From the UHGV virus genome UHGV-0110022: DNA of 48,769 nucleotides. One strand, given 5' to 3'. This DNA is from a virus. A model generated the notes under the pieces. It did no database searches. It was not told the origin of the DNA and was given only the letters and a program-made list of their open reading frames with translations. The position numbers were made by a program, and so were the translations under genes. Positions 3,402 to 6,201 of this stretch are shown here, piece after piece. How positions within the stretch are numbered: the stretch's first letter is position 1; each line of letters starts with the position of its first letter.

Positions 3402-4028
3402 TTAGAGTTCGTATTGAACTCCTTTGACTACACCAATGATAAGGCAATTACCATTGATAGGGATGTTGGGATACCGAGGATTTAATGGCACTAAAAACTT
3501 TTGAGGGCCATCGATGACTAATTTTTTTACTGTAGCTTCGTTTGTTCCATCAAGTCGAGCGATGACTATTTTTCCATGACGAGGTTCTGCATCTGGATCT
3601 ACAATCACTGTTGCGCCTTCTGGTATTGTTGGGAGGCCATTAGGGTTAGTCATGGAGTCACCTTTAACCTCTAATGCAAATGAGTTATCACCAATCTTTA
3701 ATGATGTATCTACCCACTTGTCCACTTCACTAAACACTTCTGCTGCCCTGCACTCAGTAAACTGCCCAGCCTGAACCCACGATATTACAGGAACTCTGCG
3801 CATGTTTGTGACGAGTTTGCCTTCAAACTCAGCACCATAAAGAATGTAATCTATTGACGTATTGAAGAACTTCGCTAATTTCGAAAGTGCCTCCCCACCA
3901 GGGGTATTGATGTCTTTCTCCCAGTACCCCACAGCAACGTCGCTTACTCCACAAAATTTACCCAATTCTTTCTGGGACGTTCCGGTAACTCTTCTCAGAG
4001 CTTTTATACGCTGACCAACCGTTTCCAT
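3402..4028 (-). CDS. CI-like prophage repressor (HTH-XRE N-terminus plus S24 LexA-like peptidase C-terminus)
   Basis: N-terminal HTH (QKELGKFCGVSDVAVGYWE), C-terminal S24 signature (GDSM...KLV); divergent from a cro-like gene. Confidence 0.85.
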   Translation of the reverse strand: METVGQRIKALRRVTGTSQKELGKFCGVSDVAVGYWEKDINTPGGEALSKLAKFFNTSIDYILYGAEFEGKLVTNMRRVPVISWVQAGQFTECRAAEVFSEVDKWVDTSLKIGDNSFALEVKGDSMTNPNGLPTIPEGATVIVDPDAEPRHGKIVIARLDGTNEATVKKLVIDGPQKFLVPLNPRYPNIPINGNCLIIGVVKGVQYEL

Positions 4029-4046
4029 AGGAGCACCATTTCTTGA

Positions 4047-4115
4047 ATTGCTAAGTAATCTTAGTTTTTATTGACCAAAGATAGATTTGTAATTAGCATC
4101 TAATAAAACTTAGTT
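4047..4115. promoter_or_regulatory. immunity-region operators and PR-like promoter
   Basis: Palindrome CTAAGtaatCTTAG at 4051-4064, second CTTAGTT at 4109-4115, TTGACC(4071-4076)-17 nt-TAGCAT(4094-4099) directed at cro. Confidence 0.45.
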
Positions 4116-4125
4116 TGGAGGGCGT

Positions 4126-4326
4126 ATGACAACTGACGATATCGAAAGCTACTTCGGCAGTATTGAGAAAGTTGCTGCTTTTTTCGGCATAACAACTGAA
4201 GCCGTTTATCAGTGGCGAAACCGTCCGGGCCAGTTAATTCCAAAAGGACGTGCAGCAGAAGCTGCATATAGAACTTGCGGACGGTTGCCATTTAAACCTG
4301 AGCTTTATGAAAAATCTAATGGATAA
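4126..4326 (+). CDS. Cro/YdaS-like small HTH regulator (66 aa)
   Basis: GGAGGG RBS; small HTH protein divergent from the repressor. Confidence 0.6.
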   Translation: MTTDDIESYFGSIEKVAAFFGITTEAVYQWRNRPGQLIPKGRAAEAAYRTCGRLPFKPELYEKSNG

Positions 4327-4915
4327 ATCGATTAACAGAAACCACAGAACGATGAGGCTAACCGTGGGTAAGCATCACTGGAAAGTAGAAAAACAGCCTG
4401 AGTGGTACGTGAAAGCTGTCAGAAAAACTATCGCAGCGTTGCCGGGTGGTTACGCTGAAGCAGCTGACTGGCTGGATGTAACAGAAAACGCATTATTTAA
4501 CCGCCTTCGTGCCGATGGCGATCAGATTTTCCCGCTGGGATGGGCAATGATTTTGCAACGTGCTGGTGGAACTCACTTCATTGCTGACGCTGTGGCGCAG
4601 TCTGCAAATGGCGTCTTTGTGTCTCTTCCTGACGTCGAGGATGTGGACAACGCCGATATTAACCAGCGCCTGCTGGAAGTCATTGAACAGATTGGCAGTT
4701 ATTCCAGACAGATTCGTTCGGCAATCGAAGATGGTGTGGTGGAACCGCATGAGAAGACAGCAATTAACGACGAGCTGTATCTCTCAATTTCGAAGCTGCA
4801 GGAGCATGCAGCACTGGTCTACAAAATCTTTTGCATTTCAGAAAGTAATGACGCCCGCGAGTGTGCAGCTCCGGGCGCCGTGGCGTGTCGTGACTGTGGA
4901 GAAACTAACGCATGA
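4307..4915 (+). CDS. early regulatory protein, CII/YdaT-like (putative)
   Basis: Position immediately after cro; start chosen at internal Met MKNLMDKS (4307), start uncertain. Confidence 0.4.
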
Positions 4916-5090
4916 ACAGTTTAACAACACACTACCGTCGCTCGCAACTGATTGCGCTTCCTGTACCGGGTGGAAAAGCGAAGGTGGAGTATTGCTATGC
5001 AGTTAATGTACCAGGTGACAGGGAAATTGTAACCCACAGCTTTGCTGAGTGGGCTGTGGGTGATTTCAACCGGCAGAAGGAGACAGTCCT

Positions 5091-5270
5091 TTGCGACAAG
5101 TTAACCGCTGGTTCAAAGATCACTACGGAGTGCCCGTCAGAGTCATTCGTTGGGAGCCGGAAACACAACGAGTTATCTACCTCCGCGAAGGCTATGAGCA
5201 TGAGTGCTTCAGCCCGCTCGAACAGTTTCGTCGTAAATTCAGGGAAATAGAGGTCGGTCATGAGCACTAA
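5091..5270 (+). CDS. small hypothetical protein (59 aa, TTG start), not in the ORF track
   Basis: AAGGAG at 5077-5082, 8-nt spacer, TTG at 5091; translation [40 protein letters not shown]... has no internal stop; overlaps the next gene start. Confidence 0.35.
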
Positions 5271-6201
5271 ATTAACCGGCTATGTATGGGATGGTTGCGC
5301 TGCATCAGGCATGAAATTATCCAGCGTGGCAATTATGGCCCGCCTGGCTGATTTCAGTAATGACGAAGGTGTGTGCTGGCCATCAATTGAAACTATTGCC
5401 CGTCAGATTGGCGCGGGGATGAGTACCGTCAGGACGGCTATCGCACGGCTGGAAGCAGAAGGCTGGTTAACGCGTAAGGCGCGTCGCCAGGGTAACCGCA
5501 ATGCGTCGAATGTTTATCAGCTTAACGTTGCGAAGCTTCAGGCAGCGGCATTTTCTCAACTGTCAGATTCTGACCCGTCAAAATCTGACGCATCAAAATC
5601 TGACCCGTCAAAATTTGATGCGTCGAAATCTGGCAAAAAAGCGGGTTTTCACCCGTCAGAATCTGGCGGGGATCCGTCAGTAAAATCAAAACATGATCCG
5701 TCAGATAAAAAACCTTCTCGTCCGGACGCTTCGCAACCGGACACGCAGACGGATGAACAGGATTTTTTAACTCGCCATCCTGATGCGGTTGTATTCAGCC
5801 CTAAAAAGCGCCAGTGGGGAACGCAGGATGATTTGACCTGCGCACAGTGGCTCTGGAAAAAAATCATCGCCCTGTACGAGCAAGCCGCCGAATGTGACGG
5901 CGAGGTGGTTCGTCCCAAAGAACCGAACTGGACAGCCTGGGCAAACGAAATTCGCCTGATGTGTGTGCAGGATGGTCGTACTCACAAACAAATCTGCGAG
6001 ATGTACAGCCGCGTCAGCCGCGATCCGTTCTGGTGCCGTAACGTGCTCAGCCCGTCGAAGTTGCGGGAAAAATGGGATGAGCTTTCCCTGCGCTTATCAC
6101 CGTCCGTCAGCACGTACACCGAAAAACGCGAAGACCCGTACTTCAAATCCAGTTACGACAACGTGGACTACAGCCAGATCCCGGCAGGATTCAGGGGGTG
6201 A
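5260..6201 (+). CDS. replication initiation protein (O-like; N-terminal winged HTH, central repeat linker)
   Basis: N-terminal HTH domain (IARQIGAGMSTVRTAIARLEAEGWL); central pentapeptide repeats encoded by iteron-like DNA repeats. Confidence 0.5.
   Translation: MSTKLTGYVWDGCAASGMKLSSVAIMARLADFSNDEGVCWPSIETIARQIGAGMSTVRTAIARLEAEGWLTRKARRQGNRNASNVYQLNVAKLQAAAFSQLSDSDPSKSDASKSDPSKFDASKSGKKAGFHPSESGGDPSVKSKHDPSDKKPSRPDASQPDTQTDEQDFLTRHPDAVVFSPKKRQWGTQDDLTCAQWLWKKIIALYEQAAECDGEVVRPKEPNWTAWANEIRLMCVQDGRTHKQICEMYSRVSRDPFWCRNVLSPSKLREKWDELSLRLSPSVSTYTEKREDPYFKSSYDNVDYSQIPAGFRG
5563..5710. repeat. iteron-like tandem 15-bp repeats (putative ori) inside the replication gene
   Basis: Five contiguous copies of TCA(A/G)AATCTGAC(C/G)C(G/A) at 5563-5637, further copy at 5656-5670, followed by A-rich stretch. 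Confidence 0.5.

Follow-up and report, generated by a model that had tools for sequence, protein, structure and literature searches.

The window analysed here, the whole 48,769-nt stretch of the UHGV virus genome UHGV-0110022, carries in its 5′ region the genes for immunity and replication of an e14/SfII-like lambdoid prophage. The features of this region that bear on the present study are as follows.

3402-4028, minus strand: gene for a LexA-like cI repressor
4126-4326: cro-like gene
4364-4915, plus strand: ymfL, gene for a cII-like regulator (Pfam Phage_CP76, E = 8.4e-14; named ‘protein YmfL’ by PGAP on identical DNA)
4912-5250, plus strand: ymfM ORF with ATG start, 112 aa, ortholog of e14 b1148, annotated ‘cell division inhibitor YmfM’
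4912-5088, plus strand: N-module of ymfM, about 58 conserved codons, with the signature of purifying selection in the ymfM frame
5077-5082, plus strand: AAGGAG, Shine-Dalgarno sequence of the DUF4222 gene as read from the sequence, 8 nt ahead of its TTG
5089-5250, plus strand: read-through tail of ymfM, overprinted on the DUF4222 gene, kept stop-free and unconstrained in its residues
5091-5270, plus strand: DUF4222 gene with TTG start, 59 aa (Pfam PF13973; PGAP WP_001250269.1)
5248-5252, plus strand: ymfM stop TAG (5248-5250), fused with the Shine-Dalgarno sequence GAGG (5249-5252) of the replication gene
5260-6201, plus strand: gene for an O-like replication initiator (Pfam HTH_36 and DnaD_N-like matches)

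These genes are tightly interlocked. The TGA stop of ymfL (4913-4915) overlaps the ATG of ymfM, giving ATGA (4912-4915), and the ATG of the O-like gene, whose product phage records name as replication protein O or as a primosomal protein, follows the ymfM stop by 9 nt and still lies within the DUF4222 gene, 11 nt short of its end. The sole plausible promoter is a PR-like site at 4071-4099; a search for an internal promoter or terminator near 4900-5300 returned nothing above chance. The DNA of the locus is 100% identical to one E. coli chromosome and to phage vB_EcoM-689R6, and related DNA occurs in about 2,000-2,650 (2,647 by one count) of 5,426 complete E. coli genomes. At the 3′ end of ymfL, the last six or so codons ahead of the conserved GETNA end differ sharply between the window (4880-4897) and K-12 (L004 3291-3314), including a 6-nt indel, and the DNA directly 3′ of them is 98% identical; from the alignment, this divergence looks like a mosaic recombination boundary. 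Within the O-like gene, a 15-nt unit (TCAAAATCTGACCCG-like) recurs five to six times at an exact 15-nt spacing between 5548 and 5670 (and again at 5685-5709); the copies encode SKSDASKSDPSKFD repeats and look like origin iterons, as in lambda O/ori. On the minus strand, a 90-aa ORF with a GTG start (4995-5267) is open across the whole DUF4222 gene and is probably a by-product of the codon pattern of the sense strand.

The preliminary description of this DNA had proposed that the coding signal switches frame within 4912-5270, through either a hidden 59-aa gene with an AAGGAG-TTG start or a frameshifted gene. We recovered both of its ORFs, the 112-aa one from ATG (4912-5250) and the 59-aa one from TTG (5091-5270), and likewise the AAGGAG at 5077-5082 and the lack of any in-frame ATG in the 59-aa frame. 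A homology search with the 59-aa translation, as it had suggested, gave a full-length match to Pfam DUF4222 (67.3 bits against a gathering cut-off of 27, E = 8.6e-19), which spans residues 2-53 and profile positions 3-52 of 53. The 112-aa product matched no Pfam family, and neither product matched NCBIfam; a PDB sequence search returned nothing for DUF4222 and only chance-level matches for YmfM. The shorter gene is thus real but not hidden, as PGAP already calls exactly 5091-5270 as ‘DUF4222 domain-containing protein’ and leaves out the 112-aa ORF. Nor is it new, because PGAP and Pfam already hold it.

The translation start of the DUF4222 gene was compared across 28 loci from a one-genome-per-species collection (Escherichia, Shigella, Citrobacter, Enterobacter, Kluyvera, Kosakonia, Atlantibacter, Raoultella and others). 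The homologous position is occupied by ATG in 23 of the 28 loci and by GTG in two, TTG being confined to the three Escherichia/Shigella loci, and a purine-rich, GGAGG-like Shine-Dalgarno sequence precedes it at the same place in every locus. At population level, the AAGGAG of 5077-5082 is invariant across 70 haplotypes. As for RNA structure at this ribosome-binding site, a hairpin pairing GAAGGA with UCCUUU folds no better than shuffled sequences (z = -0.33), and the pairing was not seen in other genera. AlphaFold2 models the 59-aa protein as a small beta-barrel (pLDDT 82), from which we infer a small Tudor/SH3-like beta-barrel related to RgdR, a regulator to which we return below.

To which frame the DNA answers can be read from its substitutions. 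Scans of viral contigs with the DUF4222 protein and with an N-module alignment yielded near-identical E. coli sequences only, and these were used for polymorphism counts; the polymorphism set comprises 70 haplotypes from 165 E. coli-type sequences. Between 4912 and 5090, the variants in this set are mostly silent in the 112-aa frame (19 synonymous, 7 non-synonymous). Between 5091 and 5250, the same frame counts 2 synonymous and 20 non-synonymous variants, the 59-aa frame 17 and 5, and every common variant falls on position 3 of a DUF4222 codon. The comparison across genera agrees: within the overlap, pN/pS is 0.19 in the DUF4222 frame (0.127/0.667) and 1.78 in the ymfM frame, while over the N-module it is 0.62 in the ymfM frame compared with about 1.03 in the other two. 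Alignment of related prophages, which the preliminary description had named as a check, accordingly places conservation in the ymfM frame up to 5090 and in the DUF4222 frame beyond 5091. A synonymous pattern backing the 112-aa frame throughout, its own counter-argument, was looked for in these data, and the pattern switches frame instead. The proposed switch near 5091 is therefore borne out by the substitution counts together with the Pfam match, far above chance.

Taken together, the Pfam match, the substitution pattern and the conservation of the start across genera bear out the independent 59-aa gene with an AAGGAG-TTG start, and comparative sequence evidence shows it to be a real conserved gene under ordinary purifying selection. 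A reading in which YmfM of 112 aa is the sole real product and the 59-aa ORF is open by chance would agree with the K-12 reference and several phage records, which list ymfM alone. We give this reading practically no weight, as the ORF has a full-length match to its family, a conserved start, a confident beta-barrel model and 41% identity to the experimentally studied RgdR, and the substitution pattern in its frame (pN/pS 0.19) already refutes it. DUF4222 genes also lie directly upstream of, and overlap, the starts of replication initiators in several settings, namely the window, the rgdR locus (L205) and loci L201, L202 and L037. The initiators concerned fall into several types with no relation to one another (O-like, three other phage types and a P4-like primase), and this position hints at a replication-linked role.

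The second form of the initial proposal was a frameshifted gene. Here, ribosomes starting at 4912 would slip by -1 somewhere in 5064-5090 and produce an N-module::DUF4222 fusion of about 118 aa. The geometry would allow it, since DUF4222 is read in the -1 frame of ymfM, which is open from 5064, and a few fusion proteins of 102-119 aa exist in databases, for example P0184 with 14 member sequences. Read directly, however, the only permissive stretch (5064-5090, TTTCAACCGGCAGAAGGAGACAGTCCT) contains no X XXY YYZ heptamer. The fusions are rare, with 1-14 members each compared with 300-1295 in the normal clusters, and have four different junctions, as would arise from sporadic indels or assembly errors. 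Moreover, DUF4222 has its own conserved Shine-Dalgarno sequence and ATG in other genera, in many relatives no more than 0-18 codons of its frame are open ahead of the start, and slippage would leave unexplained why a further 53 codons of the ymfM frame stand open beyond the shift site. With no slippery site, a conserved start of its own and fusion junctions that disagree, we consider a programmed frameshift very improbable and set this half of the proposal aside. In the fusion proteins P0184, P0178, P0150 and P0085, a different 1-nt indel or deletion each time brings the N-module into one frame with DUF4222; P0182, P0187 and P0196 are truncated products of 63 aa that use the third frame. The 63-aa profile PHROG 20047 may have been built from such truncated or fused variants.

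The longer ORF has its own pedigree, which the preliminary description had missed in treating it as an anonymous 112-aa frame: it is the named K-12 gene ymfM. Its product is identical to K-12 YmfM at 109 of 112 residues, has the same neighbours (ymfL and the replication gene) and matches PHROG 1170 with E = 3.8e-70. Conservation is concentrated in the first 55 or so residues, the N-module, with 36-66% identity and nine invariant positions (Q12, P17, G20, G21, Y29, F44, W47, V49 and G50), and the coding periodicity of this segment is that of the ymfM frame. Four phages (Providencia PSTRCR_117lys, Hafnia yong2, Citrobacter phiNP and Yersinia YeP2) carry the N-module as a gene by itself, 53-71 aa long and placed directly behind a cII-like gene. 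The free-standing gene overlaps the start of the next gene in the Providencia phage (replication protein O) and in the Hafnia phage (an unnamed gene), and in YeP2 it stops exactly where a DUF4222 gene starts. A search of 1.8 billion representative proteins with the N-module returned 56 relatives, in classes of about 60 aa and about 110-120 aa. By these comparisons, the N-module is shown to be a real small conserved domain. Residues 19-50 also gave summed matches to giant proteins with Listeria-Bacteroides repeats (Flg_new; P0212 and P0229), probably a chance similarity summed over repeats, though it could hint at a small beta-rich fold. AlphaFold2 models YmfM with a pLDDT of 54 overall, 57-73 for residues 1-67 and below 40 for residues 68-112.

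Downstream of the N-module, the ymfM frame continues for 53 codons over the DUF4222 gene, an overlap of 160 nt. Every one of the 28 genome loci shows this read-through, as do Klebsiella, Pantoea and mEp phages. None of 27 unique sequences, and then none of 34 diverged ones drawn from more than 12 genera, has a stop in the tail. Such openness is not explained by shared ancestry, because synonymous sites in the overlap are near saturation (pS 0.64-0.67). We also looked in the overlap for a lowered synonymous rate, the mark of residue-level constraint in both frames, and found none: the pS of DUF4222 in the overlap is 0.641, compared with 0.650 in the adjacent, non-overlapped O gene for the same 120 pairs. 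With the DUF4222 protein held fixed, a given sequence would have an open +1 frame with a probability of about 0.035 under the codon usage of the window, of 0.055 with an E. coli codon table and of 0.36 when codons are shuffled within the gene. The remaining alternative frame over DUF4222 closes within 11 nt in nearly all sequences.

The way in which the frame stays open is visible in codon choice. Where a Val, Leu or Ile codon of DUF4222 is followed by A, so that NTA or NTG would create a stop, these forms are used in none of 118 cases, compared with 68 of 169 ahead of C or T (34 sequences). Kinship among the sequences means that statistics based on counts (Fisher p = 2e-19) overstate independence, and the conservative figure, with each type of column and codon entered once, is p = 0.0012. 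As controls, DUF4222 genes that lack the read-through carry stops in the +1 frame, four in Serratia BZS1 and seven each in Citrobacter phiNP and rgdR, those of phiNP including CTG-AAC and GTG-ATC at homologous sites. The end of the frame is fixed as well. In all 28 loci, the ymfM-frame stop falls at +160 from the DUF4222 start (163 or 166 where there are indels), 3-9 nt ahead of the ATG of the replication gene, despite the four unrelated types of replication gene and a DUF4222 stop that itself ranges from +180 to +261. A rare NTA at DUF4222 codon 53 makes the ymfM stop in 30 of 31 sequences, and this NTA could be kept for the extended Shine-Dalgarno sequence of the replication gene rather than as a stop.

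Common polymorphisms alter the residues of the tail freely. As the residues are free and stops are avoided, selection would act against stop codons only, and the tail of ymfM appears, on these substitution data, to be selected only to stay open, a situation apparently not described before. Thus the weak protein character that had been noticed in the 3′ half of the 112-aa ORF is genuine insofar as its residues are unconstrained, yet it does not make the frame meaningless, as selection keeps it open. Nor is ymfM itself an artefact of annotation, judging from the comparative evidence, because its N-module stands alone elsewhere, its tail is stop-free and its end is fixed by the replication start.

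A simpler history would make the tail an accident, in which the N-module lost its stop, the next one happened to lie at 5248 and the frame has remained open by ancestry, so that only the N-module and DUF4222 matter. The unconstrained and predictedly disordered residues of the tail would suit this history, and a conserved gene limits in part how far a frame lying over it can change. Even so, despite the synonymous turnover (pS 0.64-0.67), not one of the 34 sequences from more than 12 genera has gained a stop. The same genes often use NTG and NTA where these codons do no harm, stop-making codons do occur at homologous sites in DUF4222 genes that do not belong to the read-through clade, and the position of the ymfM stop is fixed while that of DUF4222 varies. 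We therefore regard an accident as unlikely.

In three further phages, the +1 frame over DUF4222 runs on rather than ending. In SfV orf37 (L199 1352-2188), ST64B sb41 (L200 1307-2515) and a Stx2a phage (L203 1484-2317), it extends over 277-402 codons and takes in Ash (PF10554) and Rha (PF09669) domains, and the 59-aa DUF4222 gene, here with GTG or ATG, lies unannotated inside a gene called ‘transcriptional regulator’ or ‘antirepressor’. The N-regions of the SfV and ST64B genes were checked as possible frame-scrambled relics; their differences are substitutions and a 6-nt deletion.

A frame protected from stops and free in sequence may also encode something useful as a polypeptide. The tail would then be a functional disordered segment of YmfM, such as a degron or a part needed to block the FtsZ ring, of which only length or composition matters. 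This would account for the avoidance of stops without sequence constraint. In keeping with it, all variants are rich in Ser, Thr and Ala, the SfV and ST64B frames join an N-module-like region to Ash or Rha in the manner of a linker, and expression of the ymfM ORF blocks division, according to a preprint (bioRxiv 10.1101/2020.11.19.390815). On the other hand, the composition is largely forced by the DUF4222 codons, homologs of the N-module do without a tail in Providencia, Hafnia and Yersinia phages, and a fixed stop beside the replication start finds no explanation. We see a functional disordered segment as a credible but less likely alternative.

With DUF4222 a real gene and ymfM no artefact, the locus becomes an overlapping gene pair. 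The two ORFs lie on the same strand in different frames, share more than 100 nt and each bear a signature of selection. Our preferred reading, which we hold to be probable as a whole, is that 4912-5270 comprises two overlapping genes of the early rightward (PR) operon, the tail of the first being selected for its translation or its length. Both frames would be translated, to judge from the selection acting on each. Initiation at ymfM would be coupled to the stop of ymfL via the ATGA, and DUF4222 would be made by separate internal initiation within ymfM from its own Shine-Dalgarno sequence and TTG. Selection on the tail would concern translation itself, or tail length, and not sequence. In the literature searched, we found no ribosome profiling or proteomics paper that mentions ymfM.

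One further step, to which we would give somewhat less than an even chance, is that the tail carries ribosomes from ymfL and ymfM across the inserted DUF4222 gene to the replication start, by termination-reinitiation coupling. As the TAG of ymfM is fused with the GAGG Shine-Dalgarno sequence, ribosomes arriving from ymfM could reinitiate at the ATG at 5260; the fixed stop of ymfM, and the overlap of free-standing N-module genes with the start of the next gene, fit such coupling. Against this step, translation of DUF4222 also ends beside the O start and could be coupled alone, exactly the chain found in YeP2, and the SfV, ST64B and Stx frames running into Ash or Rha fit a linker role equally well. 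As a genuine overlapping pair, ymfM and DUF4222 are apparently undescribed, and the locus offers a clean natural case of an ORF segment that seems selected only to stay open.

This reading has consequences for K-12. There, ymfM (b1148) of the cryptic prophage e14 has been reported to cause filamentation on expression and has been proposed to be SfiC, an SOS-inducible division inhibitor, in work that treats it as a simple 112-aa gene and describes no frame-specific mutant (bioRxiv 10.1101/2020.11.19.390815). In K-12 MG1655 (NC_000913.3), the 59-aa DUF4222 ORF lies at 1204001-1204180 on the plus strand (L004 3502-3681). It encodes a protein identical to that of the window and overlaps both ymfM and the start of ymfN/oweE, and the K-12 record examined annotates no CDS for it. 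The pBAD clone of the ymfM ORF includes the DUF4222 Shine-Dalgarno sequence, the TTG and 53 of its 59 codons, which cover the entire Pfam domain, and the earlier library fragment D1-8E contains the complete DUF4222 gene. Since every published filamentation construct carries the DUF4222 gene or at least its first 53 codons, the published function of ymfM is not yet assignable to one product, and the constructs cannot separate the N-module, the full 112-aa protein and DUF4222.

The nested gene in these constructs thus affects the assignment of a 40-year-old phenotype, SfiC, to YmfM. It is conceivable, if rather unlikely in our estimation, that SfiC of e14 is the embedded 59-aa DUF4222 protein, which all the filamentation constructs would then have expressed as well, and that the tail is only a sequence-independent carrier of ribosomes to the replication gene. 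The literature that we searched on DUF4222 does not concern the e14/ymfM locus. Annotations are in conflict, with the K-12 reference and Prokka-style phage records listing ymfM only and PGAP listing DUF4222 only. Both reading frames appear from the selection evidence to be used, and the K-12 reference lacks a conserved Pfam-family gene at 1204001-1204180.

The sole studied member of the DUF4222 family is RgdR (ECs1581) of the EHEC prophage CP-933C (PMC3378721, PMC10877973). RgdR is a 99-aa prophage regulator with weak, non-specific DNA binding, and an RGD tripeptide at residues 20-22 matters for its activity (PMC3378721); it activates LEE1 and type III secretion and represses motility (PMC3378721, PMC10877973). 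Its core (residues 20-68) is 41% identical to the window protein over 49 residues (pairwise E = 3e-11), and its gene is likewise prophage-borne and directly upstream of a replication gene, rgdR (L205 3720-4019) overlapping the primase gene (4016-6148) by 4 nt. In contrast to RgdR, the window protein is the bare 59-aa domain, lacking the N-terminal RGD extension and the basic C-terminal 30 residues. Residues 20-22 of RgdR align with its residues 4-6 (V-N-R), so that the RGD is absent, and the roles in type III secretion and motility are those of RgdR itself, which we do not claim for the window protein. With seven stops in its +1 frame, rgdR has nothing overlapping it.

Nested phage genes are familiar from lambda Rz/Rz1, in which the second gene, with its own Shine-Dalgarno sequence and in another frame, lies inside a longer gene on the same strand. 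The DUF4222 gene resembles Rz1 in having its own Shine-Dalgarno sequence and another frame within the longer, same-strand ymfM. It differs in extending 20 nt beyond the ymfM stop and in belonging to the older, widespread family, the overprinted part being the tail of the outer gene, a tail that appears to be selected against stops only and not on sequence. Termination-reinitiation coupling, for its part, is known at ATGA-type junctions between operon genes. The overlap of the ymfL stop with the ymfM start is a junction of this kind, and the ymfM stop lies within the Shine-Dalgarno sequence of the replication gene, 9 nt ahead of its ATG. What would set the present arrangement apart from such junctions is that the coupled ORF would have to cross a whole separate gene to reach its partner.
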